DNA of 64,000 nucleotides. It comes from Gemmatimonadales bacterium (GTDB taxonomy: Bacteria; Gemmatimonadota; Gemmatimonadetes; Gemmatimonadales; GWC2-71-9). Of this stretch, positions 31,734 to 60,602 are shown piece after piece. The stretch spans positions 45,822-109,821 of the forward strand of contig DATIYM010000018.1 in the NCBI GenBank assembly GCA_035517615.1. The letters are read 5' to 3'. The notes below the pieces were generated by a model, which ran no database searches, was not told where the DNA came from, and was given only the letters and a program-made list of their open reading frames with translations. A program made the position numbers and the translations under genes. The first letter of the stretch is position 1. Each line of letters opens with the position of its first letter.

Positions 31734-31737
31734 GGGA

Positions 31738-32022
31738 TTACCGGCCAGACGGGACGGAAAGCAGGATGATTTCGGTGTCCGCGGGAAGCCGCATGCCAAG
31801 CTGGTCGCGCGCGCGCCGTACGAGCACCGAGCGACTTTCGGCCACGCGGATGCGGTGCTCGAGATCGGCTCGGCGTCCCTCGAGCGCCGCGCGTTGCTCC
31901 CGCACCAGGGCGAGGGCGCGCGCCGTGCGGATCGCCCGCGTCTGGCGCGCAATGACGATCCAGGCGGCGCCGAGAAAGGCGAGCAGCCAGAGCGCCGCCC
32001 AGTGGCGGCCCTTAATCGTCAC
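31738..32022 (-). CDS. ftsL: cell division protein FtsL-like (single TM plus coiled coil)
   Basis: Position between rsmH and ftsI. TM segment WAALWLLAFLGAAWIVIA is followed by a heptad-like region. The start is uncertain: GTG 32022 overlaps rsmH by 11 nt, and the track start at 32076 overlaps by 65 nt. Confidence 0.5.
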   Translation of the reverse strand: MTIKGRHWAALWLLAFLGAAWIVIARQTRAIRTARALALVREQRAALEGRRADLEHRIRVAESRSVLVRRARDQLGMRLPADTEIILLSVPSGR

Positions 32023-35360: not shown

Positions 35361-36254
35361 TCAAGAACTTGGCCAATCCTCGGGGATCACCCACCCTTCG
35401 TCGAGCGACGCGCGCCGCGCCCGGTCGCGCCGGCGCCGCACGAACACGAGCCAGACAAGCACGATCGCCAGCACGGTCCAAAACAGCCCTACGGCCGCCA
35501 TCCACGAGAGATATCCGTAGCCCGACGCGACGTCACCTTGCCACCGCGTTTCGAACTCGCTCTCGGTGATGTGGTACGTGCTGCGGAGGGCCGCGTCAAA
35601 ATCCCGCTTGCTGGCCAGGGCATCGATGAGCGGGCGCAAGCCGTCGCGCCCCCCACCCCCCCAGCGGTTCAGCAACGCCACCGCGGTCGTCGCGAGCGCG
35701 TAGGCGGTCTGGGCATCGGGCTCGTCCGACCGGAGCGCGAGGTCGATCTGATCGAGATTCATTTGGACGCCGCGCGCGATCTGCCAGTTCAAGCGCAGCA
35801 CCTCGAGCCGGTCCCATTCACCCGCGGCGAACGCCGCGTACCCCTCGTCGAACCAGAGCGGCGGCGGATACGTGAGCCGCGAATGCAGCGCCAGATGCGC
35901 CAGCTCATGGCGCAGCGCGGCGAAGACGCGATCGGCGGAGCGGGACGAAAGCAGCACGATGCTTCGTTCTTCGGGAAACGCCGCGCCCTCGCTCCACTCG
36001 GGCAGCCGGCCGTGCGTGAGCGAGTCAAACAGCGCGCGATTGGGCGCGAGGAACAGCCGGATCGGCCGGTCTGGAACGGGTCCGAGCCCCGCGAACCACG
36101 TCGTCCGGTCTGCGGTCTCGGCGAGCAGCGTGGCGAGTCGTTCGCCGCCGGGCCAGGAGACCGCGGTCACGCGCCCGATCGTGACGGCTTGCGGGGAGGG
36201 TGAACGGCCAACCTGCAGGGGCATCGCGAGCGCGAGCCATACTGCGAACGGCAT
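35361..36254 (-). CDS. HExxH metallopeptidase-like protein (Peptidase_MA_2-like) with a C-terminal TM anchor
   Basis: Trimmed to ATG 36254 (TGATG overlap). Signal-like N-terminus, RHELAHLALH (HExxH) and PLWFDEGYAAF (downstream Glu). C-terminal TM is YLSWMAAVGLFWTVLAIVLVWLVFV. Confidence 0.6.
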   Translation of the reverse strand: MPFAVWLALAMPLQVGRSPSPQAVTIGRVTAVSWPGGERLATLLAETADRTTWFAGLGPVPDRPIRLFLAPNRALFDSLTHGRLPEWSEGAAFPEERSIVLLSSRSADRVFAALRHELAHLALHSRLTYPPPLWFDEGYAAFAAGEWDRLEVLRLNWQIARGVQMNLDQIDLALRSDEPDAQTAYALATTAVALLNRWGGGGRDGLRPLIDALASKRDFDAALRSTYHITESEFETRWQGDVASGYGYLSWMAAVGLFWTVLAIVLVWLVFVRRRRDRARRASLDEGWVIPEDWPSS

Positions 36255-37114
36255 CAGGGGCGCGGCAGGTCCTGCCCCTTGGCGATCAGCTCGAGCATCT
36301 CCTGACATTTCTTCGCCCATGTGTTGAACTTGTTCGCCTTGAAGCCCTCTTCCCAGGTCCGGCGCGCCGTGTCCTGATTGCCGGCGAACCAGTACGAGCG
36401 GCCCAGCTCGTAATACGCTTCGATCAGGTTCGGTCCGAGCTTCAACGTCTTCTCGAAGAACGTCTGCGCGTCTTCGTACATCTGCCGCTGCAGGTACACG
36501 AGCCCGAGATAGAAATGCGCGTACAGCGTGGCCTTCTTGTCGTTGTCGAGCCGGATCGCCTTCGAGAGATGCTCGATCGCTTCGCCGAAGATCCGCTTCT
36601 TGAGACAGATGTACCCCACATTGATCCGGGCGAGCGAGTTGGCCGGCTCCTTCATCAGCACTTTCTGGAACGTCTGCAGCGCGTCGTCGTATTCCTCGTG
36701 CAGCATCTGCGCCCATCCGAGCAGCGATTCGGCCTGCGTCTCCCCGGGCGACAGCTGCAGCGCGCGCTGGAGCGCCTGGATCGCCCCGGCATGGTCGCCG
36801 AGCGAAATTAGACTCCAGCCTTTTTCGATGAATGTGGAGGCTCCGATGTGATCGGCGTGCACGGCCGGACGCGCGCCGGTGAACTCGGGAGCCGACGCCT
36901 CGGTCGCCGCGGGCGTGAGCTGCTTGTACCGGTCGACCAGCGAGCGCACCGATTCCTTCAACTCCGAGAGCTCCGCGATCATTCCATCGACCTGCTTGAA
37001 ATAGCCGATAATCTCGCGCTTCACCGCTTCGCGCTCGGCGGTGCCGTTGGCGCTGTTGAGCCGCCGCGCGATGGCCTCGTACTCGGCGCGGAGCGCGGGG
37101 AGAGTCGAGTCCAT
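36254..37114 (-). CDS. TPR-repeat protein with an N-terminal coiled coil
   Basis: 286 aa. Several canonical TPRs (A..YLG..Y......A...F.KAL.L.P). 1-nt overlap with the cheW stop. Confidence 0.65.
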   Translation of the reverse strand: MDSTLPALRAEYEAIARRLNSANGTAEREAVKREIIGYFKQVDGMIAELSELKESVRSLVDRYKQLTPAATEASAPEFTGARPAVHADHIGASTFIEKGWSLISLGDHAGAIQALQRALQLSPGETQAESLLGWAQMLHEEYDDALQTFQKVLMKEPANSLARINVGYICLKKRIFGEAIEHLSKAIRLDNDKKATLYAHFYLGLVYLQRQMYEDAQTFFEKTLKLGPNLIEAYYELGRSYWFAGNQDTARRTWEEGFKANKFNTWAKKCQEMLELIAKGQDLPRP

Positions 37115-37632
37115 CAGGACGCCTCCGCGAGCGGACCTGCCGCCGCGAGCACGAGCTGCTCCTGTGAGCTCAACAGCTGTGCCGTGTTGAGCACGATAAT
37201 CGTGCGTCCCTCGCGCGCGATGAGCCCGCCGATGTATTCGGCGGCGAGCCCGCGGACGATCTTCGGCGGCGGCGTGATTTCGTTTGCGCCCAGCTCCAGC
37301 ACTTCCGTGACCGCGTCCACGATCACCCCGATCCGGCCGCCACCCGCCACCGACTCGCCATCGTTGCCGCGGCTCGCGCCCAACTCCCAGTCGAGAATCA
37401 CGGTCCGCGTTTCGTTCTTGACCGGCGCCGGCACTCCGAGCCGCTTCCGGAGATCGATGACCGGCACCACGGTCCCTTGATAGCGGAGCACGCCCTCGAG
37501 AAAGGCAGGCGCCTTGGGCAGCGGCACCGGAGGTTCGTAGCGGAGGATCCGCTCAACGTGAAAGATGTTGAACGCGAAGTCCTGCCCCGCAACCTTGAAC
37601 GAGACGAGCTGGACTTCATCGCCTGTGTTCAT
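37114..37632 (-). CDS. cheW: chemotaxis coupling protein CheW
   Basis: 172 aa. LVSFKVAGQDFAFNIFHVERI...GVLRYQGTVVPVIDLRKRLG...IGVIVDAVTEVL. Confidence 0.85.
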   Translation of the reverse strand: MNTGDEVQLVSFKVAGQDFAFNIFHVERILRYEPPVPLPKAPAFLEGVLRYQGTVVPVIDLRKRLGVPAPVKNETRTVILDWELGASRGNDGESVAGGGRIGVIVDAVTEVLELGANEITPPPKIVRGLAAEYIGGLIAREGRTIIVLNTAQLLSSQEQLVLAAAGPLAEAS

Positions 37633-38054
37633 GCGAACCGCTCCTCCAAAGCCGCGAAATCGAGAATCGGTACGAGTCCCGTCCCCTCCGCGCGATGCGC
37701 CACGCCGCTGGCCCAGGGAAGCGACTCTCCCGGCGGCACCGGGATGGCCCGTACGCGCACCACTTCCTCGGCATCGTCCACTTCGAAAGCGACGTAGCGC
37801 TCCCCCTCACCGATCTGCACCACGACTGTCGTCTGCCCCTGCGCTGCCGGGGGCGTCCGTCCGGCGCCGCCGAGCAGCGCGCCCAGGTGCACGAGCGGCA
37901 CGAGCCGACCGCGCCACGGGGTGAGACCGCGCATCGCATCGAGCGCCCGGGGCACGGACAGCACTTCCGCCCCGTCGTTGACCTCGAGCACCCGCACGAG
38001 CGGCAGGCCATACGGACGGCCTTCCGATCGCACCAGGAGATAGCCCTCGCTCAT
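37629..38054 (-). CDS. CheW-like protein (divergent)
   Basis: 141 aa. [21 protein letters not shown]...[20 protein letters not shown]...[11 protein letters not shown] has CheW topology. ATGA overlaps on both sides. Confidence 0.75.
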
Positions 38055-39145
38055 GGCGGCGCGACGCGTGGGGCTCGCACCAGCTCAACCACGCGTCCGG
38101 CAATGTGTGCCAGCGGCAGCACCGCGTCCGCGCCGCCGCCCTGCGCTGCCGCCACGGGCATGCCAGCGATCACCGACGACTCGCGATCCTGCGCGACGCC
38201 CCTGCCCCCGGCATCATGAATCGCCCGCAGCCCGGCCGCGCCGTCCCGACCCATTCCCGTCAACACGACGCCGACTGCACGGGAACCGAACAGCTCCGCG
38301 ACCGAGCGAAACAGGGGATCGGCGGCCGGGCGAACGCCCCATACCGGAGGGGATTGATCGAGGGCGAGTGCGGGACCGTCGGGCCCTTGGACCACGCGCA
38401 TATGATAATCTCCGGGGGCCACATAGGCGGTGTCCTCCACCACAGGCGCCCCGTGGTCACCCTCAACCACGCGGAGCGGACTCATCGAATCGAGCCGTTC
38501 CGCCAGACTGCGCGTGAATTTGGGCGGCATGTGTTGCGCAATCAGGACCGCCGCCCCAAGGCCGGCAGGCAGTCGGGGAATGAGCTCCGCCAGGGCCCGC
38601 GGCCCGCCCGTCGATGCGGCGATCGCGACGACGGCCCGCGCCCGGGGGCGAAGCTGCATCTCGGCCGGATGACGCACCGCGGCCGGCGGGCGGGCCATCA
38701 CCGAGACGTGCGAGAGGTCGGCGGCCAGCGCGCGCCTCACCGCGGCCACGAGCTCCGGCGCGATGTGCTCGAGCGGCGCCCGGCCGGAATCGGGGGGCTT
38801 GGCGACGATCTCGACGGCACCGAGCTCGAGCGCGCGGATCGCCGCCTGCGTGCCGGGTCCGGCGTGTGCGCTCACGACCACGATGGGGCGCGGGATCTCG
38901 GACATGATGTAGCCGATCGCGGCGAGCCCGTCGAGCTCGGGCATCTCGAGATCCATCGTGATCACGTCCGGCTCGTGCTGATGGACTTTGCGCACCGCGT
39001 CCAGCCCGTCGCGCGCGGTGCCGACGACGTCGAATTCCCCGGAGCCTTGCGGTCCCGCGAGCACGTCCGAAATCACCCGGCGCAGGAATGCGCTGTCGTC
39101 CACCACGAGCACCCGGGCCTTCCGGGCCTGGCGCTCAGATGACAC
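38051..39145 (-). CDS. cheB: protein-glutamate methylesterase/deamidase CheB (REC plus esterase)
   Basis: Trimmed to GTG 39145 ([23 protein letters not shown]). REC Asp in [14 protein letters not shown]. Esterase motifs [22 protein letters not shown]. Confidence 0.85.
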
Positions 39146-39635
39146 GAACGGGACATCCCACGGTACGCACCTCGACGCGGCCGTCCGCCACGAACATGTG
39201 CACCGAGCGGCCCGATCCGCCCCCCACGGCCTCCGCCGTGACCGGGATCGACGCATGGCGCAGCGCCTGCCGGGCCGCGACGATGTTGCGCTCGCCCATC
39301 TGGACCGATCCCGGTTGCATCAGCTGCGCAAACATGCTGGCCCCACCCGCAAGCTTGGCGACGACATGGCGCGGGTCGGCCCCGAGCTCCGCCACTCGTT
39401 CGAGCAGAAACGGCACCGCGGTCTCGGGGAATCGCGCCGGATTCGCGGCGTCGCGCGACAGGCTCCGGGATGGCAGGAGGATGTGCGCCATTGCGCCCAC
39501 TCGAGCCCCCGGATCGTGCAGCATGATTGCGACGCAGGAGCCGAGACCGAGGGTGACGAGCACCGCGTCGCCGCGATCCGCCGCCCATTCCCCCACGCGT
39601 ACCATGTGCTCACGACGCGCATCGGAGCGGTTCAT
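39135..39635 (-). CDS. cheD: chemoreceptor glutamine deamidase CheD
   Basis: Trimmed to ATG 39635 (ATGA with the cheR stop). [12 protein letters not shown]...AHILLP...KLAGGASMF. Confidence 0.85.
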
Positions 39636-40447
39636 TCGAGCCGACGGTAGATCCGCTCCCGCGGCTCCTCCAGCTTGAAGCGCTGCCGGACCTCGCCGAA
39701 CAGCGTCTCGACTTTTCCGAGCACGAGAATGCCGGCGGGAACGAGCGCGTCGGCGAACGCGCCGAACAGCCGCTCCTGGAGCGGCCGCTCGAAGTAGATC
39801 ATCACGTTGCGGCACACGATCAGGTCATACGGCGCCGCGGGCGGCGGCTCGGTCGTGAGATCGTGCCGGCGCACGCGCATCATGGTGCGCAGCCGCTCCA
39901 CGGCCTGGCGGGGCTCTACCGCGCTGAAGTACCGCGCGGCGAGCTCGCCGGGAATTTCTCCGAACGCGCTCGCCGGGAACGCCGCGGATTCCGTGCGCGC
40001 GATACTTTCGCGATCGAGATCCGTGGCATCGATGCGGGGCCGATCGAGCCAGCGTTCCTGTCCCTGGTGCCGCGCGGTCTCGGCGATCGCCACCGCGAGG
40101 CTGTAGGGCTCCTCGCCCGACGCGCAGCCCGCGGACCACACCCGAATCCGTCCTTCCCGCGCGTGCCACAGCTCGCGCAAGTAGACGGCCAGCGCCTCCC
40201 ACGTTTCGGCGTTGCGCCAGAACTTGGTGACATTGATGGTGAGCGTGTCGAGCAGCCGATCGTATTCGGTCGCGTCTTCGTCGAGCAGGCGCGCGTAGGC
40301 ACCGTAGGTATGGACGCCGCGTGCGCGCATGCGCACGGCCAGCCGCCGCCGAAAGCACTTGTGTTTATAGCTCTCGCAGCTGATGCCCCGGGCCAGCGAG
40401 ATCTTGCGGGTCAGCGCGTCGAATTCAGGATCCTGCGATGGAATCAC
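39632..40447 (-). CDS. cheR: chemotaxis protein methyltransferase CheR
   Basis: 271 aa. TINVTKFWRN, RVWSAGCASGEEPYSLA, DLIVCRNVMIYF. Confidence 0.85.
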   Translation of the reverse strand: MIPSQDPEFDALTRKISLARGISCESYKHKCFRRRLAVRMRARGVHTYGAYARLLDEDATEYDRLLDTLTINVTKFWRNAETWEALAVYLRELWHAREGRIRVWSAGCASGEEPYSLAVAIAETARHQGQERWLDRPRIDATDLDRESIARTESAAFPASAFGEIPGELAARYFSAVEPRQAVERLRTMMRVRRHDLTTEPPPAAPYDLIVCRNVMIYFERPLQERLFGAFADALVPAGILVLGKVETLFGEVRQRFKLEEPRERIYRRLE

Positions 40448-42060: not shown

Positions 42061-44004
42061 CTAGTGCAGCTCCTCGATCAATCGATCCGCGGGCGCCGGC
42101 CAGTCCCACACCATTTTTTCGCGGCTGCGGATGCCGCCGAGGCTCGAGACCACGAGCCCGCTCGTCCGGAGCGCGCCGCTCTTCCGATTGGGTTCGCGCT
42201 CGTGCCCCTCGAGCACCGCGCGCGCGAGCCCCACCGAGACGGACTGGTCCTGCGCGGCCGCCGCTCCGATCACGCGCTGCAGCAGTCCCTGCAGACCCCG
42301 CACCGAGTCCACCGGCCGGTCGGCTAAATACTCGAGCAGCGCCGAATCGCGATTCAACTGGTGCGTAACGAAGAGCCGCTCGAGCATCGCGCGACGGATT
42401 TCCCGGTCCGGCTCCATGATCTCGGCCACGAGTCCGCCTCCGAGGCGCGAGATCAGCCGTGCCTCCATTCCAGTGAGCTTGCTGGGATGCACCGGCGCGG
42501 TGAACAGGAGCTGACGTTCCTGATCGAGAAACAGATTGAACAGATTGAACAGCTCTTCCTGTGTCCGATCCTTCCCGGCGACGAGGTGGATGTCGTCGAG
42601 CAGCAGAGCGGTCGCGCGGCGGTAGCGTGCGCGCCACCACTCCACGCGATTCCCATTGATGGATGTGATCAATTCGTCGATGAACGTCTGCGTGGACAGG
42701 CACGCGACGACGGCGCCTGGCTGCTTGGCCAGCTCGAGTCCGACGCCGTGCAGGAGATGCGTTTTCCCCGACCCGCTCTTTCCGATGAACACGAGCGGGT
42801 TATACCGCTTGCCCGGTTGCTCGAGCACGGCGCGCGCGGCCGTGACCGCAACCTGATTCGCCGCCCCGGTGGCGTAATTCGCGAGCGGGAACGCGGCCGA
42901 TGGACCGTGCGGCGGCGCCGAACCGACGAGCACCTGCGACGCGGCCGCTTCCGCTTCGGTCATCCGCTCGGGATCGCGGAACAGGCTCTGGCCCGCGGCC
43001 TGCGGATCGAGCGCCGCCACCTCGTTCTCCAGGGTCCGGAGCCGCTCGACGTCGCGGGCAAATGCCGCGATCTCCGCATCGACCGCCGGCGGGGTGTCGC
43101 GCTCGAGCAGGACCTCGAGTCGATGGGTCCGGTAGCCCTCGCCCTCCCAGCGCAGGATGGCCTCGGCCACGCGAGCGCGCCATGCCTCCACGGCCTTCCC
43201 GACGGTGGCAGTCACGTCATCGAGGAACGATCCAAACTCGTCCGCCGAGCCCGCGACGCGAGCGGCCGCCGGCGGCGCCACCGCTCTCTCGAGTCCGAGC
43301 AGTTGCTTCGCGCCCTCCGCGTTGAGGGGCGTGTCGTTCACCGCCTGGTAGGCGACCATGCGGTTCAACGCGCCCATCAGCTCGCGCACGTTCGGGAATT
43401 CGGCCGTCGCCACCGTTTCGAGCACGCCGGGCTGGAAGTTCGCGCCCCGTTCCTCGGACTTGCGGCGCAGGATCGCTACGCGGGTCTCGTAATCGGGGAC
43501 GCCGATGTCGACCACCAGGCCCCCCGAGAACCGCGAGATGAGCCGCTCGTCGAGATCAGCGATCTCGGCCGGAGGGCGATCGCTCGTCAGCACGATCTGG
43601 TGGCCGCCGGACTGCAGCGCTTCGATCAGCCGCAGCAGCTCCGCCTGCATCTCCTTGCGGTTCGTGAGGAACTGCACATCGTCGATCAGCAGCACGTCGA
43701 CGTTCTGAAACCGGCGGCGAAACGCGTCTCCTTGCCCCGCCGCCACGGCGGCGTGGAACGCCTCGACGTATTCGTCCAGGCTCAGGTACTCGATGTTCAG
43801 ATTCGGAAACAGCTTCTTCGCGCTTTGTCCGATCGCCATCAACAGGTGTGTCTTGCCGAGGCCCGAGACGCTGTAGACGAACAGCGGGTTGTAAACCGTT
43901 CCCGGATTCTCGGCCACGGCGCGTCCCGCCGTTACCGCCAGGCGGTTGGCCGCGCCGACCACGCATGTCTCGAACGACAGCCGGGGATTGAGCGCCGTGG
44001 TCAT
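42061..44004 (-). CDS. tandem DnaA-type AAA+ ATPase (two domain-III modules; no domain I or domain IV)
   Basis: 647 aa. Module 1 (aa ~10-225): [91 protein letters not shown]. Module 2 (aa ~372-600): [86 protein letters not shown] overlap with the mglA stop. Confidence 0.75.
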
Positions 44005-44600
44005 GCGGTGGTCCCGGCGGACAGACGCTTCAGCACCAGCTCCGAGATCGCCTTGAGGGTCTCGAACACACCCCGGCCGTGGAGCGCGTCGGCGGGAAGG
44101 CTCGGGACCGCGCGGAAATTGAGCGCATCATCGAGCTCCGCCGGCTCGAGAATCAGCTCACGCGGCAGGTCCTGCTTGTTGTATTGCATGACGAGGGGGA
44201 GCGTGCGGACGTCGATCCCAAGCTCGAGCAGATTGCTCTGCAGGTTCTGCAGGCTTTCGACGTTCTCGTCGAGCTGCCGGGCCTGACTGTCCCCGACGAA
44301 CACCACGCCGTCCGCGCCCTGGAGCACGAGACGCCGCGTCGCGTTGTAATAGACCTGCCCCGGCACCGTGTACAGCTGGAACCGCGTGCTGAAGCCCGAG
44401 ATCTGACCCAGATCGATGGGGAGAAAATCGAAGAACAGCGTGCGATCGGTTTGCGTCGCGAGCGACACCATCCGTCCGCGCCGGGCCTCGGGGACGCGGC
44501 CGTAGATGTAGTGGAGATTGGTGGTCTTGCCCGATCGTCCGGGTCCGTAGTAGACGATCTTGCAGGTGATCTCGCGGGTCGTGAAGTTGACGAGGGACAC
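44001..44600 (-). CDS. mglA: Ras-like polarity/gliding GTPase MglA
   Basis: 199 aa, colinear with Myxococcus MglA as I recall it. [62 protein letters not shown]. The intrinsic Arg and catalytic Gln positions are conserved. Confidence 0.9.
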
Positions 44601-44603
44601 GTG

Positions 44604-45074
44604 CTATCTCCCGAACAGCGTGTCGAGGCTGTCGCTCAGCTGGCGCTCGAAATCGGCCGCCAGCACCTGCTTCGGGACGCCGGTCTTGGGACTCGCCGCG
44701 TGCAGCTCCGTCCGGAGTTGCTCGAAAAATAACTGCACCAGCCCGATCGATGAAACGTCGAGGTCGTACACCACCAGAACCACCACCATGCCCTGATGGG
44801 TCGGCGCGTTCGCGAGAAAGATTCCGTGACGCTCTCCCTGGTGCGTGAGCGCGGCAAACGGCGGCTCGCCGAGTTGGCGCGCGATCTCGGTGGTCGACGC
44901 CACGATCGCCGAACTGAGTGCGGCCGCCGACATGACGTCGAGCGCGCGCGCGAAGCCATGCTGCGCCAGCACCTGCCCCGCGGGCGTCATCAGCAGCACC
45001 AGCCGCGCCGCAGCCTCCCCGACGAACTGCTTGAGGGGATCGAGCGTCCACGTCTCCACCGCGCGCGTGGTCAT
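44604..45074 (-). CDS. mglB: Roadblock/LC7 protein, MglB-like (putative MglA GAP)
   Basis: Trimmed to ATG 45074 (ATGA overlap). 156 aa. VLLMTPAGQVLAQHG...VVLVVYDLDVSSIGLVQL and a C-terminal acidic tail ...DSLDTLFGR parallel the MglB architecture. It lies directly upstream of mglA. Confidence 0.75.
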   Translation of the reverse strand: MTTRAVETWTLDPLKQFVGEAAARLVLLMTPAGQVLAQHGFARALDVMSAAALSSAIVASTTEIARQLGEPPFAALTHQGERHGIFLANAPTHQGMVVVLVVYDLDVSSIGLVQLFFEQLRTELHAASPKTGVPKQVLAADFERQLSDSLDTLFGR

Positions 45075-45418
45075 CCGACCAGCTCCGCGGCGCGCAGCAG
45101 CTCGAGCCGGACCAGTCCGACATTCACCTCCGTCTCGGCCACGGCCACGATGAGGACTCCCGACGGCGCGGGCACCACGAGCAGGGCACCTTCGGTGCAC
45201 TGCAGATGCCAGAACAGCGCGGCGCCGATGCCCCCCGCGGCCATCGCGCGCGACAGCCGGTTCGCGAGGCTGCCGGCGAGCGCCGCCACGGCAGGACCCT
45301 TGATGCCCTCCATCAGCTGCTCGGCGACCACCAATCCATCCGTTGCGGAGACGAGCATCGCGCCCCGGACGCCCCGGACTCGCGTGACGAGATCGAGCGC
45401 ACGCACATAGCCGCTCAT
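45071..45418 (-). CDS. Roadblock/LC7 domain protein
   Basis: 115 aa. LDLVTRVRGVRGAMLVSATDGLVVA...ALLVVPAPSGVLIVAVAETEVNVGLVRLEL is a canonical Roadblock pattern. Confidence 0.75.
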   Translation of the reverse strand: MSGYVRALDLVTRVRGVRGAMLVSATDGLVVAEQLMEGIKGPAVAALAGSLANRLSRAMAAGGIGAALFWHLQCTEGALLVVPAPSGVLIVAVAETEVNVGLVRLELLRAAELVG

Positions 45419-46302
45419 GCCTGTCGCTCCAGCCAGCGGGCGGCAACCTGTGCCGCGCGCTGCGCGATGATCGCGAGCCGCCCCATGGGCACCGCGCGAT
45501 CGCGGATGATCAGCAGCAACGTTTGCGCGCTCGGTTGGGCCAGATGGACGTGTCCGCTCACACCTTCGGCGGCAAGACCGGTCCAGGTGCCGAGCCCTAC
45601 GAGCTTCGCGGTCCGGGCGGCTTCCTGTGACACGCCGGCCAGGTACGCCGCCACGGGAGCGGTGACGTCGTTTCCCGAGCCATCCCGCAATGCGCCGCCC
45701 AGCACCTGGCCCGAGCCGTCGAGCAGCAGCAATCCTTCCTGCGCGCCCTCGAGCCCCGCGAATACGCGCTGCTCGTCGAGTGGACCAGACGACGCGGCCG
45801 GAGCCGGCGGCGGCGTCGGCGCCGGTGCGGCAGAGCTCGGGGGCGCCGGAGCGGCGGGCACGGCAGCGCTCTCGAATCCCAGTCCCGCCGCCGCCGCCCC
45901 CGCATCGCCGCCCTGCACCATGGCCACGGCCTGCGCGATGGTGGGATCGCTCGGCGAGTGGCGTTGCGCCGCCTCGAGGTGCGCGGCGGCCTGCTCCACG
46001 TCACCGACCTTGAAATACAGAAACGCGAGTCCTTTCAGCGCGCCCACGTGCGTGGGCGCGATCCGGAGCGTCATGTCCCATTCGTCGAACGCGCGCTCGA
46101 AATCGCGCTTGTCGGCCAGGATCCGCGCGTAGAGGTCGTGCGCATCCGCGAGATGCGGGTGCCTCTCGAGCCCCGAGAGAGCCACCCGATGCGCCGCATC
46201 GAGCTGGCCCTTGTGGCGCAGCAGCTCGCCCAAGCGCAGGAACACGAGACTCGTGGGGTCCTGGGCGAGCTGCGCGGACAACGACTTCACGTCCTCAGCC
46301 AT
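45415..46302 (-). CDS. TPR - Pro/Ala linker - Roadblock/LC7 fusion protein
   Basis: ATG 46302 (MAEDVKSL) overlaps the upstream stop by 8 nt. N-terminal TPRs, then a linker AVPAAPAPPSSAAPAPTPPPAPAASS. The C-terminus GLLLLDGSGQVLGG...LLLIIRDRAVPMGRLAII is Roadblock-like. Confidence 0.65.
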   Translation of the reverse strand: MAEDVKSLSAQLAQDPTSLVFLRLGELLRHKGQLDAAHRVALSGLERHPHLADAHDLYARILADKRDFERAFDEWDMTLRIAPTHVGALKGLAFLYFKVGDVEQAAAHLEAAQRHSPSDPTIAQAVAMVQGGDAGAAAAGLGFESAAVPAAPAPPSSAAPAPTPPPAPAASSGPLDEQRVFAGLEGAQEGLLLLDGSGQVLGGALRDGSGNDVTAPVAAYLAGVSQEAARTAKLVGLGTWTGLAAEGVSGHVHLAQPSAQTLLLIIRDRAVPMGRLAIIAQRAAQVAARWLERQA

Positions 46303-47452
46303 GCTGCACCCCCGCACGGCCCAAGGTCAGCGCCGCGGCTTTCGCCTGCTGAACTTCTTCGACGCGAGCCGCCTCCGCGGGGCCATGCGGCGTGAGCCGT
46401 TCCCAATGCTCCCATTGTTCGACGGCTTCACCGAAGCGGCCGATCGCCGCGAGCGCGTGCCCCAGCAGGCGGTGCGCCGCCGCGAGCCGTGGGTCGAGCC
46501 GCACCCCCTGCCGCAGCGCCGTCACGGCCTCCGCCGGCCGTCCCGCCGCGAGCTGGACGCGGCCCAGCAGCAGGTGAATCGCCGCATTCTCGGGGTGCGC
46601 AGCGGCCGCCTGCTCGGCGGCCGCCCGCGCCTCCTGGTGGTCATGGCGTGCCAGCGCCGCCTCGGTGCCCGCCAAGAGCTCCGCGAGCTCGGCGGCCGAC
46701 CCGCCTCCCGGGCGCTCGCGCGCCGCCGCCCCGGGATCGATGAGCAGAATCACGCCGGCGCTCTCGAGTCCGAACAGCGTCTTCGCGACGTCGAAATCCG
46801 AGCGGCCGAGCTGCCGCGCGATGGTGCGCACGTCACGCGTCGAGTCGATCATCGCCAGGACTTCCCATTCCGCCGGAAGCAGATCGAGCGCCGGGCTGGT
46901 GCCCGACGACAGCGCCGCCAGATGCGGCACGACGCCGACGTGCGGAACGCGCTTCTCGATCCGCGACCATTCGTCGATGCGGCGCGCGCCCTCCATGAGG
47001 AGCGCCTCGGTTCGAATCCGCACCACGGCGCGCATCGCCACGTCCGGCCCCGGCTCTTCGCTGAACGAGAAGAACCCCTCGTTCCAGCTCATGACTTCGA
47101 ACACGACTTCCTCGATCTGAAAGCGCACCTGGCGCTCCACGTCGCGCGGCGTGACCGCGCCCATCTCCACGAGGATTTCGCCCAGTCGGCGCGCGTCGCC
47201 TTTCGTCTGCAGCTCGCGCGCGCGCTCGAGGTCCGATTCGGTGATCTTGCCGGTGCGGACGAGCAGTGTGCCGATCTGGTGCGGGTTGCTCCGCATCTCG
47301 GCGAACACCACCGCGCCTTCGTCGAAGTAGATCTTGCCGTCGTTCAACCGCAGATCCGACGTGACGCGCAGCACGCCCGTCTTCCGGCTCAGGTCGAGCA
47401 GCTGGAAGACGTCGTGAATCCCGAGCTCGCGTAGCGGTCCTTCGATCGGCAT
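46295..47452 (-). CDS. DUF4388/PATAN-domain protein with tandem MshEN-like motifs and C-terminal TPRs (paralog of 40444..42060)
   Basis: 385 aa. GPLRELGIHDVFQLLDLSRKTGVLRV...GKIYFDEGAVVFA, then QIGTLLVRTGKITESDLERARELQ-TKGDAR-RLGEILVEMGAVTPRDVERQVRFQ, then Ala-rich TPRs. Confidence 0.7.
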   Translation of the reverse strand: MPIEGPLRELGIHDVFQLLDLSRKTGVLRVTSDLRLNDGKIYFDEGAVVFAEMRSNPHQIGTLLVRTGKITESDLERARELQTKGDARRLGEILVEMGAVTPRDVERQVRFQIEEVVFEVMSWNEGFFSFSEEPGPDVAMRAVVRIRTEALLMEGARRIDEWSRIEKRVPHVGVVPHLAALSSGTSPALDLLPAEWEVLAMIDSTRDVRTIARQLGRSDFDVAKTLFGLESAGVILLIDPGAAARERPGGGSAAELAELLAGTEAALARHDHQEARAAAEQAAAAHPENAAIHLLLGRVQLAAGRPAEAVTALRQGVRLDPRLAAAHRLLGHALAAIGRFGEAVEQWEHWERLTPHGPAEAARVEEVQQAKAAALTLGRAGVQHG

Positions 47453-50150: not shown

Positions 50151-50771
50151 TCAGGTCACGCGAATGGCGTCGAAGATCGCCTTAAGAGACGCGAGATCCG
50201 GCAGGAGCAGGAAGTGGCCCCGCAGCCCCTCACCGTTGTCGAACCGGAATTCCGTTTCGACGCAGAAAATGAAATCGCGCTCGTGACCGAAATTGAGATA
50301 GGCCGTCGTGAGGACCGCGCCCGCCACATCGATGACGAGACTCGGCACCGACGGCAGGAGCAGCATGCCCATGAACTCGGAGAGCGCGTTCATGTAGGCG
50401 CCCGCGAGAATATTCCCGGCTTCCTTGAGGCAGGATTGCTCGAGCGTCTCGTAGCTTGCGGTCTGGCCCTTCGGCCGGCGCAGCAGCATGTCGCACAGCC
50501 GCCGGCCGACCGCTTCCGGCAACACGAGCAGCGTTCTCCCGGTGAGATCGCCCAGCATGTGCATGAGCACCGCTGCCACTACCGCCTGCGAATCACCCAA
50601 CAGCTCGGGCACGTCCTCGAGCCGTGTGATGATGATGCGCGGAACCGTGATCATGATGCGCCGATCCGTCATCTGGGACAGCGCGGTCGCTGCGTGCCCC
50701 GCCCCGATGTTCGCCACCTCGCGCAGCGCATCGATCTGCAGCGCTTTCAATTCGCGGACGTCCTGCATCAC
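50151..50771 (-). CDS. cheC: CheY-P phosphatase CheC
   Basis: 206 aa. Both phosphatase motifs ([DS]xxxExxN) are present: DALREVAN and SCLKEAGN. Confidence 0.8.
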   Translation of the reverse strand: MMQDVRELKALQIDALREVANIGAGHAATALSQMTDRRIMITVPRIIITRLEDVPELLGDSQAVVAAVLMHMLGDLTGRTLLVLPEAVGRRLCDMLLRRPKGQTASYETLEQSCLKEAGNILAGAYMNALSEFMGMLLLPSVPSLVIDVAGAVLTTAYLNFGHERDFIFCVETEFRFDNGEGLRGHFLLLPDLASLKAIFDAIRVT

Positions 50772-50785
50772 GTAGGCCGCCCTTC

Positions 50786-52711
50786 CTAGACGAGGCCGCC
50801 GGCGTCGAGAATCAAGGCCGGCACGCCGTCGCCCATGATGGTCGCGCCACTGAAGAGGGGCAGCGTACCCCGGGGCGCATCGAATCCCTTCACCACGATC
50901 TCCTGTTGTCCCAGCATGCTGTCGACTACGAGCCCGGCGCGCCGCTCCCCCATTTCGAGCACGATGATCGGCCGTCGGGGCGGCACGTCGCCATCACCCA
51001 CGGCAAGCAGACGGCGCAGGTGCACGAGCGGCACCACGCGATCGCGCAGCACGATCGCCTCGCGCCCTTCGAGGGTCGTGGTCGGCGCGCTCCCGAGCTC
51101 GATCGTCTCCGAGACGTACGTCAACGGCAGCGCATACCGCTCGCGACCCACGCTCGCGATGAGCGCCCGCACGATGGCGAGCGTGACGGGAAGCCGCAGA
51201 ACGAACGTCGTTCCCCGCCCCTCATCCGAGCGCACTTCGACGCTGCCGCCGAGTGCACGCAGCCGCGTGACGGCGACGTCGATGCCCACGCCCCGGCCGG
51301 AAACGGCGGTGACCGACTCGGTCGTCGTGAACCCCGGCCGCGCGATGATCCGCAGCAGCTGGTCGTCGGTGAGGTTCTCGGCATGCGGGTCGACCAATCC
51401 CTCGCGTTTGGCACGCTCGAGCACCTTGCGGCGGGGAATGCCGCGGCCGTCATCCGAAATCGTGATGATCACGCTCGAGCGCTCGCGCACCGCCGCGAGC
51501 ACGATCTCGCCCTCGGGCTTCTTGCCGGCGCGCCGCCGCTCTTCCGGCGGCTCGATCCCGTGGTCCACCGCGTTGCGGAGCATGTGCACGAGCGGATCGC
51601 CCAGCTCGTCCAGGATCGTGCGGTCCAGCTCGATCTCTTTTCCCTCGACGCGGAACTGCACCTGCTTGCCGAGCTGGCGCGCACTGTCGCGCACCAGCCG
51701 GGGAAACCGGTCGAACACCTGCCACACGGGCGTGAGACGAGCCTGAATGATTTGATCCTGCAGATCACGCGAGAGGCGCGCGACGCCGAGGGCGATGTCG
51801 TCGATCGCCGGGTCGCGGCGCGCCACCGCCAGCTCGTTCAACCGTCCACGCACGATCACGAGCTCGCCGATCAGATCCATCAACGCGTCGAGGCGGCGCA
51901 GGTCGACCCGCAGATGCCGCGCGCGTCCCGCCTCGCTCCCCGGCGCCGCCGTCTGAGATTCGGGTCGCGGCGCCGCGGGCTCGTCCGCGGCCACGTCGAC
52001 GGATTCCACGTCGCCCGCCCGTTCGATTGCCTGCACGACGTCCGCGATGGACGCGGGCGTTTCGAGACGGAAGGCAAAGTGCCCGTCGAAATCTTCGGAT
52101 TCGAACGTTTCGGTCGGCGGTGAGACGGCCCGCACCGTACCGAGCGCGCCCGCATAACGCAGCGCGATCAGCGCCCGGCCACCCTTGAGCGGCGCCGTTT
52201 CGCGCAGCGCGACGCGCACGAGACGCCCGGCGGGCTTGAGGGTCCGCGCTGGTTCTGGTACGCGCGGACTCGGGTCCGCATCTGGCGTGCCGCTTCCCGC
52301 TTCGCGCTTCCCCTTCTCCTCTCCCCCTTTCCCCTTTCCCGACGCGAGGGCGAGGTCGCGCAGCACGGCATCGAGGTCCGCGTCTCGCTCGCGACCGGCA
52401 ACCGCGAGCCCGATGCTCGATTCGAGCGCATCGACCGCGCGGAACAGGAGCTGGAGCACTTCGGGACTGACGGGGGCGGCGCTGCTGCGAATCCCATCCA
52501 GCAGGCTTTCCGCCGTATGCGCGAGCTCGGCCACACGCGCGTATCCCATCGTGGCCGCCATGCCTTTGACCGTATGCATCGCGCGGAAGATGCCGCTCAC
52601 CGGGTCACGCGCCGACGGATCACGCTCGAGCGCGAGCAGCAGCTCGTTGCAGGCGCTCACATGCTCCCGGCTCTCCGCCAGGAACAGGTCCGCGTACTGC
52701 GAAAGATCCAT
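50786..52711 (-). CDS. cheA: chemotaxis histidine kinase CheA
   Basis: 641 aa. HPt FRAMHTVKGMAATMGY, dimerisation domain, HATPase motifs (HMLRNAVDHGIE, DDGRGI, GRGVGIDV) and a C-terminal CheW-like P5. The linker after P1 is encoded by a heptamer array. Confidence 0.9.
   Translation of the reverse strand: MDLSQYADLFLAESREHVSACNELLLALERDPSARDPVSGIFRAMHTVKGMAATMGYARVAELAHTAESLLDGIRSSAAPVSPEVLQLLFRAVDALESSIGLAVAGRERDADLDAVLRDLALASGKGKGGEEKGKREAGSGTPDADPSPRVPEPARTLKPAGRLVRVALRETAPLKGGRALIALRYAGALGTVRAVSPPTETFESEDFDGHFAFRLETPASIADVVQAIERAGDVESVDVAADEPAAPRPESQTAAPGSEAGRARHLRVDLRRLDALMDLIGELVIVRGRLNELAVARRDPAIDDIALGVARLSRDLQDQIIQARLTPVWQVFDRFPRLVRDSARQLGKQVQFRVEGKEIELDRTILDELGDPLVHMLRNAVDHGIEPPEERRRAGKKPEGEIVLAAVRERSSVIITISDDGRGIPRRKVLERAKREGLVDPHAENLTDDQLLRIIARPGFTTTESVTAVSGRGVGIDVAVTRLRALGGSVEVRSDEGRGTTFVLRLPVTLAIVRALIASVGRERYALPLTYVSETIELGSAPTTTLEGREAIVLRDRVVPLVHLRRLLAVGDGDVPPRRPIIVLEMGERRAGLVVDSMLGQQEIVVKGFDAPRGTLPLFSGATIMGDGVPALILDAGGLV
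52285..52340 (-). repeat. heptamer array on the cheA sense strand (GGGAAAG GGGAAAG GGGGAGA GGAGAAG GGGAAGC GCGAAGC GGGAAGC GGCACGC)
   Basis: Read directly. It encodes SGKGKGGEEKGKREAGSGT in the P1-P2 linker of CheA. Confidence 0.8.
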
Positions 52712-52712
52712 G

Positions 52713-53075
52713 TTAGCCGAGCACTCGCTGCACCGCTTCGAGCACCCGTGAAGGTTGGAACGGCTTGACGACGAAGTCCTTGGCGCCGGCCTGAATCGCC
52801 TCGACGACGAGCGCCTGCTGGCCCATGGCGCTGCACATCAGAATCTTGGCGTCGGGATCCTGGCGGACGATTTCGCGCACCGCGTCGATGCCGCCCATAT
52901 CCGGCATGACAATATCCATGGTGACCAGATCGGGTCGGAGCTGGCGGTATTTCTCCACCGCCTGCGCGCCCGTCTCCGCTTCACCAACCACCTCGAACCC
53001 GGCCTGAGCCAGGATATCGCTGATCATCGTCCGCATGAAGATCGCGTCATCGCAGACGAGGACAGTGTGATTCAC
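52713..53075 (-). CDS. cheY: chemotaxis response regulator CheY
   Basis: 120 aa single REC domain. VLVCDDAIFMR, LVTMDIVMPDMGG, conserved Lys in KDFVVKPF. Confidence 0.9.
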   Translation of the reverse strand: MNHTVLVCDDAIFMRTMISDILAQAGFEVVGEAETGAQAVEKYRQLRPDLVTMDIVMPDMGGIDAVREIVRQDPDAKILMCSAMGQQALVVEAIQAGAKDFVVKPFQPSRVLEAVQRVLG

Positions 53076-53084
53076 ACACCCTCC

Positions 53085-53540
53085 CTAGGATGCGAAAACA
53101 GGACCGAGAAGCGCGTCGGTGTCGAGGACGATGAAGAGTCGTCCATCGCGCCGGCCGACCGCCTGGACGAGGGTGGGATCGACCCCGGGCAGAGCCTGCC
53201 GAGGCTCGAGGGCATCTCCACCCACCGCGAGAAGGTCGACCACTTCATCCACCGTGAAACCCACGAGGCGGCGGGCGGGCGCGACGCCGAGCTCGAACAA
53301 CATGGTCGTCGCGGCATCCGTGGATCCGGCGGCGGCCGGCTGGCCCAGGGCCCGCCAACCATCTATCACCGTGATCAGGTTGCCCCGGACATTGACTAGC
53401 CCCCGCACCACCTCCGGTGCACCCGGAATTCGTGTTGCTGGGAACTGCGGCAGGATCTCTCGGACCAGGTCGGCGGGTGCCGCGCAGGCCAACTCGCCCA
53501 CCCGGAAAACGAGCAATCGGACCACCCCGCCGTCACTCAT
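53085..53540 (-). CDS. CheW-like coupling protein
   Basis: Trimmed to ATG 53540, an 8-nt overlap with the rluD stop. LLVFRVGELACAAPADLVREI...GLVNVRGNLITVIDG...VGFTVDEVVDL. Confidence 0.75.
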   Translation of the reverse strand: MSDGGVVRLLVFRVGELACAAPADLVREILPQFPATRIPGAPEVVRGLVNVRGNLITVIDGWRALGQPAAAGSTDAATTMLFELGVAPARRLVGFTVDEVVDLLAVGGDALEPRQALPGVDPTLVQAVGRRDGRLFIVLDTDALLGPVFAS

Positions 53541-54540
53541 CCGATGCGAAGAAGCCAAAATATGACAATGGGTTGGGCTGAGCAAGCAATGTGTCGTCTT
53601 CGGCCGCTCTGGCCAGCGCTTCACGCAAATCGGCAGGCCATTCTGACCGCAATGTGACCCGTACACCGGTCACCGGATGGTCGAACGTGAGCACCGCGGC
53701 GTGTAGGGCCTGGCGGGGCGTTGCGGCTTCGATGCGCTCGGCTTCCCCCCGCAAGGACCCTGTCACCCGGCGGCTCCCACCGAACGCGTACTCCCGATCA
53801 CCCACCACCGGATGCCCCACGTGGGCCAGGTGCACCCGAATCTGGTGGGTCCGGCCCGTCTCGAGCTCGAGGCGGAGCAGATCGACATGAGCAAACCGGG
53901 CGAGCACGGCCGCATGCGTGACGGCGTGACGGCCTCCCGCCAGTACCGTCATGCGTTGACGGTTCGTGGGATGGCGCGTGATCGGCGCTTCGATGCGCAC
54001 CGGACTCCTGGCCAGGTGCCCCCAGGACAGCGCGGCATAGCCGCGTTTCACCTTGCGATACTCGATCGCCCGAGCCAGACGACGATGCGCCCGGTCGGTT
54101 TTCGCAATCAGCAGGAGGCCGGACGTGTCCCGGTCGAGGCGATGCACGATGCCCGGCCGGCCGGCTTCGCTTCCCTCGGACAGCGGCGTGCCCCTCCCTA
54201 CGAGCACGTTGACGAGCGAATCGTTCCAATGACCCGGACCCGGGTGCACCACCAATCCGGCGGGTTTATCGATGACGAGCAGGTGCTCGTCCTCGTATGC
54301 GACGGTGAGATTTCGCTCGGCGGGCTGATAGACGCGGGGAGCGGCTTCGGGCGGGAAGTTGACCGAGACGACGGTGCCGCGCGCGAGACGAGCAGACGCC
54401 CGGAGCGGGCGTCCATCACTTTCGACCCGTTTGTCGGCAATGAGACGCGCGGCCGCGGTTCGGGACAGCGCGAGTTGTTCGGCGAGAAAGCGATCCAGGC
54501 GATCGGACTCGGGTACCGCCACACAAAAGGTGACGGTCAC
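53533..54540 (-). CDS. rluD: 23S rRNA pseudouridine synthase, RluD family
   Basis: 335 aa. S4 domain (RLDRFLAE), HRLDRDTSGLLLIAK, and C-terminal GRTHQIRVHLA. Confidence 0.85.
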   Translation of the reverse strand: MTVTFCVAVPESDRLDRFLAEQLALSRTAAARLIADKRVESDGRPLRASARLARGTVVSVNFPPEAAPRVYQPAERNLTVAYEDEHLLVIDKPAGLVVHPGPGHWNDSLVNVLVGRGTPLSEGSEAGRPGIVHRLDRDTSGLLLIAKTDRAHRRLARAIEYRKVKRGYAALSWGHLARSPVRIEAPITRHPTNRQRMTVLAGGRHAVTHAAVLARFAHVDLLRLELETGRTHQIRVHLAHVGHPVVGDREYAFGGSRRVTGSLRGEAERIEAATPRQALHAAVLTFDHPVTGVRVTLRSEWPADLREALARAAEDDTLLAQPNPLSYFGFFASDE

Positions 54541-55052
54541 GGCTCCGTTGCCTGAGCCTCCTCGTGCCGCTCGTGGGTGCGGCCTTCGAGCCAGAGCGAG
54601 ACGGCGAGTGTGATCGCCCCGACCGTGATCGCGGAGTCAGCCACATTGAAAGTGGGCCAGCGCATCACCCCGACGCCAACATCGACGAAATCCACCACGC
54701 CGAGCGAGCTGCGCAGGCGGTCCAGCACGTTGCCCACCGCGCCCGCCGAAACGAGTGCCAGGGCGATGAGGCGCACGCGGTCGCCCGGTCGCGTCCCGCG
54801 CACCATCGAGCCGAGCACGAACAGGGCCGCAATAGCGAGCCCGAAGAAAATCCAGCGCGAGTACAGGCCCAGACACAGGCCGAACGCGGCGCACTGGTTG
54901 TAGACCAGCCGCAGCTGGACGTAATCGCCCAGTACGGAGACGGGCAGGTGCCGGGCCAGCAGGGCCTCCGCGAGCATCTTCGTGACGAGGTCCAGGACCA
55001 CAACGGCGCCCGCGGTCATCCAGAACAGCCGCCGATCAGCGCCGCTGGTCAT
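54537..55052 (-). CDS. lspA: lipoprotein signal peptidase II
   Basis: 171 aa with four TM segments. VLDLVTK, LVYNQCAAFG, GAVGNVLDR, FNVADSAI. Confidence 0.85.
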   Translation of the reverse strand: MTSGADRRLFWMTAGAVVVLDLVTKMLAEALLARHLPVSVLGDYVQLRLVYNQCAAFGLCLGLYSRWIFFGLAIAALFVLGSMVRGTRPGDRVRLIALALVSAGAVGNVLDRLRSSLGVVDFVDVGVGVMRWPTFNVADSAITVGAITLAVSLWLEGRTHERHEEAQATEP

Positions 55053-55452
55053 CTTCTTCCTTCGCCTTGCACTTGATGCACAGCCGCGCGTGTGGCAGCG
55101 CGTCGAGCCGCTCGAAGCTGATGTCTTCGCCGCACTGCTCGCAGCGTCCGAACTTCTCGGGAGCCTGATACAAGCGGCGCAGCGCCTGATTCACGTGCCA
55201 CAGATAGCGCCCTTCCTGTGACGCGAACAAGAACGCCTTCTCGCGCTCCATGGCATCGGTGCCTTGATCGGCCATGTGGAACGAATAGCTCGAGAGGTCG
55301 CCATCCGACGCCTGCAGGCTCGAATTGAACGACTCGCCGTAGTAGCCCAGCTCCTTCATCACGCGCGAGCGCTCCTCGAGCAATCGCTTCTCGAGATGGG
55401 TGAGCTGCTTCTTGTTCAGGCCCTTTGCCTTCGACTTGGATTTCGTCGGCAT
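55036..55452 (-). CDS. DksA/TraR-family C4 zinc-finger protein
   Basis: 138 aa. Coiled-coil N-terminus and CEQCGEDISFERLDALPHARLCIKC. Confidence 0.75.
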   Translation of the reverse strand: MPTKSKSKAKGLNKKQLTHLEKRLLEERSRVMKELGYYGESFNSSLQASDGDLSSYSFHMADQGTDAMEREKAFLFASQEGRYLWHVNQALRRLYQAPEKFGRCEQCGEDISFERLDALPHARLCIKCKAKEEDDQRR

Positions 55453-60584: not shown

Positions 60585-60602
60585 GCTAGCGACGGTGCCG
60601 CT

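Follow-up and report, generated by a model that had tools for sequence, protein, structure and literature searches.

Three Roadblock genes upstream of mglA in a chemosensory operon of Gemmatimonadota, possibly encoding a multi-Roadblock regulatory assembly

Why should a single small GTPase gene be preceded by three different genes for Roadblock/LC7 proteins? This question is raised by a stretch of 64,000 nucleotides (nt) of a Gemmatimonadales bacterium (contig DATIYM010000018.1; the whole stretch is called the window), which we take to stem from a soil bacterium of the phylum Gemmatimonadota. On its minus strand, mglA is preceded by a gene encoding a fusion of tetratricopeptide repeats (TPR), a Pro/Ala-rich linker and a Roadblock domain, by a second gene encoding a stand-alone Roadblock protein of 115 amino acids (aa), here named Robl2, and by a third gene encoding an MglB orthologue. 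An initial annotation of the window had proposed that the three products form a hetero-oligomeric regulator of MglA, an idea that was to be abandoned if the two genes other than mglB were pseudogenised or absent in relatives. The reverse was found. Among 139 informative loci, all three genes were present in 134, MglB was missing in five, and TPR-Roadblock or Robl2 was missing in none. At this locus, canonical MglB is the dispensable member, and the noncanonical pair was never lost.

The arrangement given in the initial annotation, three consecutive Roadblock genes on the minus strand with ATGA overlaps and mglA 3 nt later, was confirmed by checking coordinates and junctions in the sequence. 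The first open reading frame (ORF) extends from an ATG at 46302 to a stop at 45415 and shares 8 nt at its start with the end of the PATAN-TPR gene upstream; ATG 46302 is preferred over GTG 46317 because orthologues begin with MADDIK or MSDDIR. ATGA overlaps link this gene to the Robl2 gene (45418-45415) and the Robl2 gene to mglB (45074-45071). The mglB gene ends with TAG, followed by 3 nt (CAC) and the GTG start of mglA at 44600, and the start of a tandem AAA+ gene overlaps the mglA stop, again as ATGA. Since che genes flank the mglA module on the same strand with minimal gaps, it is embedded in a chemosensory operon. This operon of about 17 kb runs from 53666 to 36254, with every gene on the minus strand and gaps that are tiny or nil. 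Its first half comprises cheW, cheY, cheA, cheC, a gene for an all-TPR protein (TPR896), a PATAN-TPR gene, the three Roadblock genes and mglA; its second half comprises the tandem AAA+ gene, a second PATAN-TPR gene (PATAN-TPR538), cheR, cheB, two cheW genes and a gene for a TPR protein. The single larger gap, of about 375 nt, lies between the end of cheR at 39632 and the annotated start of cheB at 39256 and also occurs in related loci. A receptor gene (methyl-accepting chemotaxis protein, MCP) was not noticed in the che cluster of the window.

The Roadblock part of the fusion protein scored weakly with Pfam. Its C-terminal domain matched Robl_LC7 (PF03259) over residues 189-266 with 18.6 bits (E = 1.6e-3), which is below the gathering score of 23 bits, and TPR repeats were located at residues ~20-130. 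When the last 125 residues of 33 orthologues were built into a profile, this matched the Asgard Roadblock protein 7f8m (E = 1.6e-5) and Thermus thermophilus MglB 3t1s (E = 4.4e-5). The AlphaFold2 model had a predicted local distance difference test score (pLDDT) of about 90 for the TPR, below 50 for residues 145-187 and 70-80 for the C-domain, which was modelled with the topology b-b-a-b-b-b-a (a, helix; b, strand); helix a1 was not predicted. Foldseek with the full model found TPR proteins alone (OGT, designed TPRs) and was uninformative on the Roadblock part. Its predicted fold and its profile matches to solved Roadblock structures show that the first Roadblock domain, although weakly scored, is genuine. 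Searched exhaustively with the Roadblock C-domain, 1.84 billion representatives yielded 239 clusters at 50% identity, and in nearly all full-length family members (260-460 aa) the match was C-terminal. Fifty divergent members had a common N-terminal TPR consensus, with Robl_LC7 detected in 48 of them (E<=0.01, best 1.2e-11) and TPR_14 likewise in 48/50. Because divergent members keep both TPR and Roadblock, the fusion is the normal architecture of a distinct family, in which the linker is what varies (14-93 aa across orthologues). Thus, the family profile, the 48 of 50 divergent members and the modelled topology uphold the description of the first gene as a TPR - Pro/Ala linker - Roadblock fusion. 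Public annotation names the family only 'tetratricopeptide repeat protein', and the family is likely restricted to Gemmatimonadota.

The second protein, Robl2, reached 28.9 bits with Pfam Robl_LC7 and hence exceeded the gathering score. Its family profile matched an archaeal (Asgard) Roadblock protein at 1e-11, and also dynein LC7, LAMTOR2, CvnB and MglB. The AlphaFold2 model (pLDDT 85) had the topology a-b-b-a-b-b-b-a, and Foldseek aligned it to Roadblock, LAMTOR2 and MglB structures with template modelling (TM) scores of 0.78-0.88. Residues D27-G28 and R104 were invariant among orthologues, and the final helix was conserved and basic. Judged by score and model, Robl2 is a complete generic Roadblock protein, as the initial annotation had it.

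The third protein matched Myxococcus xanthus MglB (6izw_B) over residues 18-154 in a phmmer search (E = 2.4e-8), and the alignment covered the C-terminal helix (...LDTLF versus ...IDNLF in M. xanthus MglB). The match to T. thermophilus MglB was E = 1e-6, and the Pfam Robl_LC7 score of 30.2 bits was above the gathering score. With the NCBIfam model of Thermus MglB it scored 40 bits against an equivalog cut-off of 200; the protein is therefore an orthologue-level relative of MglB and no equivalog by NCBIfam. From these matches it is assigned as an orthologue of the characterised GTPase-activating protein (GAP) MglB. The initial annotation was right in calling this protein MglB-like, but the acidic C-terminal tail attributed to it was not found: its last 25 residues carry a net charge of -1, which is also the family median. 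This region is instead an amphipathic helix (about aa 135-156; 44672-44607) with the conserved pattern F-E-x-x-L-x-x-S-L-x-x-L-F-G-R. The adjacent MglA matched M. xanthus MglA with E = 3.5e-72 and T. thermophilus MglA with E = 2.2e-69. Both its intrinsic arginine finger (the Arg in TDRTLFFDF) and its G3 motif TVPGQ (in LYTVPGQ) are intact, which places the protein in group 1.

Conservation of the locus was assessed in a genome scan with MglA as query and one genome per species. It yielded 80 loci, almost all labelled Gemmatimonadota, in which the order cheA-cheC-TPR-PATAN/TPR-Robl x3-mglA-AAA+-PATAN/TPR-cheR-cheB was kept. Sequence identity was 76-92% for MglA and 34-80% for the Roadblock proteins. 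Family hidden Markov models detected the three Roadblock genes in every one of the 64 loci whose upstream DNA was long enough; in four loci, one Roadblock gene carries a single frameshift, and two of the four (L050, L076) are metagenome-assembled genomes with MFD names. Overlaps of 4 nt or 1 nt were kept at 61/66 first and 67/69 second junctions. The ratio of nonsynonymous to synonymous substitution rates (dN/dS) against six close relatives was 0.15-0.26 for the three Roadblock genes and 0.05-0.09 for mglA, values that are approximate because dS, at 0.74-1.21, is close to saturation. These ratios indicate purifying selection on all three Roadblock genes. Given the phylum-wide conservation and the low dN/dS, the two extra Roadblock genes are neither pseudogenes nor sporadic. 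A metagenome scan queried with the MglA of locus L081 added 70 informative loci. Robl2 and MglB were both present in 67 of these, and TPR-Roadblock together with Robl2 in 49/49 loci with >2200 nt upstream of mglA. The same scan with the query P0325 found no relatives.

Two of the operons without mglB, L081 (8001-9977) and L083 (5001-7133), came to light through remote members of the TPR-Roadblock family. In both, mglA directly follows the Robl2 gene, with a spacing of 29 and 14 nt, respectively, and the 15-kb L081 locus has no MglB-like ORF at all. In the metagenome scan, the three loci most closely related to L081 (L086, L087 and L088; about 1600-3600) were also without MglB. The MglA of L083 is 76-79% identical to that of the L081 clade versus 82.6% to that of the MglB-containing locus L093; since L083 is no closer to the L081 clade than to loci with MglB, the operon has probably lost mglB on two or more occasions. 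MglB may be supplied in trans in such lineages, because a second locus of the form 'MglB>MglA>' is recorded for Gemmatimonas aurantiaca in a survey of 2014.

The relations among the three Roadblock proteins were analysed by profile-profile comparison and by rate covariation. Robl2 and the Roadblock domain of the fusion were matched with a probability of 93% (E = 3.7e-7), Robl2 and MglB with 84%, and TPR-Roadblock and MglB with only 2.4%. By this comparison, Robl2 and the TPR-Roadblock domain are each other's closest paralogue, with MglB more distant. For covariation, pairwise protein distances were determined for ten operon components in 29 loci and the window, the operon-wide background was removed, and the residuals were correlated and assigned Mantel p values. 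The known partners MglB and MglA, which served as positive control, gave a residual covariation of 0.42 (Mantel p about 5e-4). The TPR-Roadblock domain covaried with Robl2 (0.42) and with MglB (0.38), both at a Mantel p of about 5e-4, and with MglA (0.24, Mantel p about 0.003). Robl2 covaried significantly neither with MglB (0.07) nor with MglA (0.08), and the N-terminal TPR part of the fusion reached <=0.19 with the TPR and PATAN proteins of the operon. A second covarying group consisted of TPR896, the tandem AAA+ protein and PATAN-TPR538 (0.62-0.77). Apparently, covariation runs along a chain, which suggests contacts in the order Robl2, TPR-Roadblock domain, MglB and MglA.

Distinct conserved paralogues and a chain-like covariation fit a hetero-oligomeric assembly. 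As the best-supported reading, we propose that the products of the three genes join in a single multi-Roadblock assembly that regulates the adjacent group-1 MglA and is wired into the Che-type operon, a proposal for which we see the chances as evenly balanced. MglB would act on MglA as in Thermus and Myxococcus, docking onto the GTPase and positioning its own Arg finger and Gln; it would be the canonical docking GAP, aided by its C-terminal helix. TPR-Roadblock and Robl2, as a heterodimer or as stacked dimers, would form a second Roadblock layer that serves as an adaptor or possibly as a direct regulator, with the Roadblock domain of the fusion bridging Robl2 and MglB/MglA. A partner, perhaps an effector, a polar landmark or an output of the Che pathway, or a component of the Che, TPR or PATAN machinery, may be tethered to the assembly via the TPR arm and its flexible Pro/Ala linker. 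The nucleotide state of MglA may control the association of the layers, as MglA-GTP disrupts contact between MglC and MglB in Myxococcus, and the overlapping stop and start codons would lead to coupled, roughly proportional synthesis. A precedent is the M. xanthus MglC2:(MglB2)2:RomR complex, which is broken by MglA-GTP (PMC10329633). Hence, the hetero-oligomeric regulator of the initial annotation gains from the distinct conserved paralogues, the covariation chain and the MglC/MglB precedent, but its elaboration beyond the MglB homodimer is not new, as MglC and RomY illustrate. The division into GAP, GEF and scaffold roles and the docking of the TPR arm onto the cluster's other TPR proteins, both also suggested in the initial annotation, gain no support from these data.

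Several observations weigh against this proposal. Rate covariation is weak evidence, since the residuals are non-independent and dS is near saturation, and is mainly hypothesis-generating. Homologues of RomR, RomX and RomY were not noticed in the operon. The KRK patch by which Myxococcus MglB binds MglC is not conserved, R115 being replaced by Gln in 53/71 orthologues. In the five loci without operon mglB, an adaptor would have no MglB to adapt unless this is encoded elsewhere. Finally, Robl2 as an orthologue of M. xanthus MglC (MXAN_5770 clade) is unsupported, no specific similarity being detectable. The best Robl2 matches are archaeal Roadblock proteins, LAMTOR2, CvnB-type proteins and MglB; no chain named MglC appeared among the PDB sequence matches of the Robl2 profile with E<=10 or among the top 50 Foldseek matches, where the presence of MglC is itself unconfirmed. 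MglC is characterised by an FDI surface (F25, D26, I28, around G27) and a KRR patch (K104, R106, R110). At the former, Robl2 has the invariant D27-G28 followed by L29, and the preceding position is variable and not Phe; at the latter, R104 is invariant and R109 is Arg in 34/64 orthologues. The D-G pair is not diagnostic of MglC, because it is generic in Roadblock proteins coupled to MglA groups 2-5.

The five loci lacking mglB indicate that the TPR-Roadblock/Robl2 pair may act directly on MglA. The pair would then be the primary MglA-binding regulator, whether as a GAP, as an anti-GAP, as a factor that promotes exchange or as a sensor of the GTP state, possibly a Ragulator-like heterodimer, and MglB would be accessory or partly redundant. 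We regard this main alternative as possible, though rather improbable. Its weight is raised by the presence of the pair in every informative locus, with operon mglB missing in five through at least two probable losses, and the covariation of the TPR-Roadblock domain with MglA points in the same direction. Furthermore, group-1 MglA has its own Arg finger and Gln, so that a GAP need only dock and no catalytic residue is required (PMC3199381). The MglA-docking patch on alpha2 is defined by the exchanges to Arg A68/72R in T. thermophilus MglB and A64/G68R in M. xanthus MglB, which abolish GAP stimulation (PMC3199381). The corresponding residues of the local MglB, in an alignment that is uncertain by about one residue, are A59 and E63; the position of M. 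xanthus A64 is Ala in 67/71 orthologues and the second is Glu in 63/71. The TPR-Roadblock domain has Q226/R230 at this patch, within a strongly conserved alpha2 in which the Arg is invariant, and Robl2 has variable residues. The strong conservation of alpha2 would suit a direct regulator, but in these alignments both proteins place bulky or charged residues where MglB docks MglA. Also unfavourable are the nil covariation of Robl2 with MglA and the second MglB>MglA locus of G. aurantiaca, from which MglB could act in trans in mglB-less lineages. MglB itself is reported to have GAP and guanine nucleotide exchange factor (GEF) properties, and RomRX not to be a GEF (PMC13408092). In a bolder form of this alternative, TPR-Roadblock:Robl2 would be an obligate heterodimer and the core MglA regulator of Gemmatimonadota, a Ragulator-like layered platform that reads the nucleotide state of MglA, whose TPR arm couples the Che pathway to the GTPase switch, with MglB as an add-on that some lineages dropped; we offer this form tentatively and hold it to be doubtful.

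Alternatively, the three proteins may be independent homodimers with separate jobs, perhaps condition-specific alternatives, their adjacency reflecting duplication history and co-expression. The characterised MglB and MglC are indeed homodimers, Robl2 and MglB do not covary, and other phyla have two MglB-family genes beside group-1 mglA without known complexes. Against this stand the conserved start/stop overlaps, the order strictly fixed across 139 loci and the significant covariation of the TPR-Roadblock domain with both Robl2 and MglB; moreover, homodimeric MglB and MglC still join one complex in Myxococcus. We consider this explanation unlikely. Regulation of another NTPase of the operon, the tandem AAA+ ATPase or CheA, by the two extra Roadblock proteins would accord with the general implication of the Roadblock/LC7 superfamily in NTPase regulation (Koonin and Aravind 2000, cited in PMC4316618) and with the translational coupling of the unusual double AAA+ gene to mglA, but is quite improbable, as the AAA+ protein covaries negatively with the TPR-Roadblock domain (-0.43) and MglB (-0.42), at -0.07 with Robl2, and instead positively with TPR896 (0.77) and PATAN-TPR538 (0.66), and as the characterised prokaryotic Roadblock partners are all MglA-family GTPases.

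Among known systems, the polarity module MglA/MglB/MglC of M. xanthus, with RomR, RomX, RomY and Frz control, of which the Gemmatimonadota array is a conserved and further elaborated form, shares with the window a group-1 MglA with Arg finger and TVPGQ, an MglB orthologue with C-terminal helix, extra Roadblock paralogues (there stacked as MglC2:(MglB2)2), a link to a Che-type pathway and a TPR protein as MglA partner (SgmX). It differs in that mglBA lies apart from an orphan mglC, whereas here three Roadblock genes with overlapping codons lie in cis, one of them fused to TPR through a disordered linker, and the module is physically inside a che operon. Furthermore, orthology of Robl2 to MglC is not detectable, the KRK patch of MglB has not been kept, RomR, RomX and RomY were not noticed in the locus, and some lineages dispense with MglB there. 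The Ragulator-Rag system (LAMTOR2/3, LAMTOR4/5 and the C-terminal Roadblock domains of RagA/C) likewise has several Roadblock proteins for one small-GTPase system, in layered dimers under nucleotide-state control, a conceptual parallel drawn in PMC10329633, and the Robl2 model fits LAMTOR2 with a TM score of about 0.8. This similarity is at fold level only (14-18% identity), heterodimers are here only proposed, the GTPase is not Roadblock-fused, and a p18-like membrane anchor is absent. Actinobacterial conservons (CvnA histidine kinase, CvnB Roadblock, CvnC DUF742, CvnD MglA-family GTPase) also combine Roadblock, GTPase and a two-component-type kinase in one operon, and the Streptomyces Roadblock structure 3kye is among the matches of the Robl2 model; conservons have one Roadblock protein, a group-2 GTPase without Arg finger and a membrane histidine kinase instead of CheA, and lack TPR and PATAN proteins. 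In group-1 mglA loci of Chloroflexi and Chlorobi (Wuichet and Sogaard-Andersen 2014; McLoon et al. 2016), more than one Roadblock gene adjoins mglA and PATAN genes are nearby, but the survey lists no more than two Roadblock genes, and neither a TPR fusion nor a che operon. TPR proteins are direct MglA partners, by description, in Bdellovibrio (Bd2492, with RomR; PMC3983030) and in M. xanthus (SgmX); these proteins have no Roadblock domain, and Bdellovibrio has no MglB.

Two Roadblock genes beside group-1 mglA and PATAN neighbours (2014, 2016) as well as a multi-Roadblock complex (Myxococcus) are therefore already known. For Gemmatimonas aurantiaca, the 2014 survey lists only GAU_1115 'MglB>MglA>' and GAU_1409 'PATAN>MglA>-PATAN>'. 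The mapping of the window locus onto these is ambiguous; since the entries show at most one MglB, the three-gene array is not recorded there. Apart from this survey, literature searches turned up no paper that deals with MglA in Gemmatimonadota or with a fusion of TPR and Roadblock, and we found no record of the three-gene array, the TPR-Roadblock family, the che-operon position, the phylum-wide conservation or the loss pattern that spares the noncanonical pair. In Myxococcus, the molecular link from the Frz chemosensory pathway to the MglA/MglB/MglC polarity switch is still unknown (PMC10329633); the conserved, translationally coupled Gemmatimonadota unit of Che, MglA, three Roadblock, TPR, PATAN and AAA+ proteins offers a compact parts list for mapping such a link. 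The loss of the GAP gene, with two unstudied Roadblock proteins never lost, suggests that a Roadblock protein other than MglB can be an essential partner of group-1 MglA, and it bears on the question whether bacteria possess genuine counterparts of Ragulator-type layered Roadblock platforms.

Coordinates of the Roadblock-mglA module and of the surrounding operon genes in the window
Feature	Coordinates	Strand	Evidence
TPR-linker-Roadblock fusion, 295 aa	45415..46302	-	Pfam, AlphaFold2, family profile
TPR domain of fusion, aa 1-140	46302-45883	-	
Disordered Pro/Ala-rich linker of fusion, aa 141-187	45882-45742	-	
Roadblock domain of fusion, aa 188-295	45741-45418	-	
Robl2, stand-alone Roadblock/LC7 protein, 115 aa	45071..45418	-	Pfam, profile, AlphaFold2, Foldseek
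MglB orthologue, 156 aa, Roadblock core and C-terminal helix	44604..45074	-	phmmer, Pfam
Group-1 MglA small GTPase, 199 aa, GTG start	44001..44600	-	sequence matches, motifs
PATAN (DUF4388)-TPR protein, 385 aa	46295..47452	-	Pfam DUF4388 (E = 2.8e-32) and TPR
All-TPR protein TPR896, 896 aa	47456..50146	-	many Pfam TPR families; synteny conserved
Tandem DnaA-type AAA+ ATPase, 647 aa	42061..44004	-	Pfam Bac_DnaA twice (E = 4.4e-96)
Second PATAN (DUF4388)-TPR protein PATAN-TPR538, 538 aa	40444..42060	-	Pfam DUF4388 (E = 1e-39) and TPR
Upstream che block: cheW 53666-53085, cheY 53075-52713, cheA 52711-50786, cheC 50771-50151	50151..53666	-	Pfam
Downstream che block: cheR 40447-39632, cheB 39256-38051, cheW-like 38054-37629, cheW 37632-37114, TPR protein of 286 aa 37114-36254	36254..40447	-	Pfam

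Additional features were noted for the neighbouring proteins. In the tandem AAA+ protein, whose gene follows mglA in all related loci, both modules have an intact Walker A (GKT) and Walker B (DD) by eye. A DnaA DNA-binding domain was not detected, and the NCBIfam models of DnaA and Hda match the ATPase parts only. Both PATAN-TPR proteins match the NCBIfam MshE-related cyclic-di-GMP-binding motif in their PATAN domain (residues ~57-111), with 44.5 bits for the protein encoded at 46295-47452 and 54.3 bits for that at 40444-42060 (cut-off 38), which suggests a cyclic-di-GMP input into the system. In L081, a CheD gene (13423-13923) follows the second PATAN-TPR gene at the position occupied by cheR in the window.

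At the downstream end of the operon, the minus-strand ORFs for a Peptidase_MA_2 protein (35361-36716) and for the 286-aa TPR protein (36254-37114) overlap; the true start of the Peptidase_MA_2 gene probably lies downstream of 36257. The operon is flanked by housekeeping genes (29781-32857 and 53533-63846, both on the minus strand). The downstream flank is the start of a division/cell-wall cluster with a MraW-family methyltransferase and an FtsI-type penicillin-binding protein with PASTA domain. The upstream flank encodes a pseudouridine synthase, signal peptidase II, isoleucyl-tRNA synthetase (IleRS), a purine/uridine phosphorylase-family protein and DivIVA, and also a protein with a DAC (cyclic-di-AMP cyclase) domain, a pterin-binding (FolP-type) protein and an FtsH-type AAA+/M41 peptidase.

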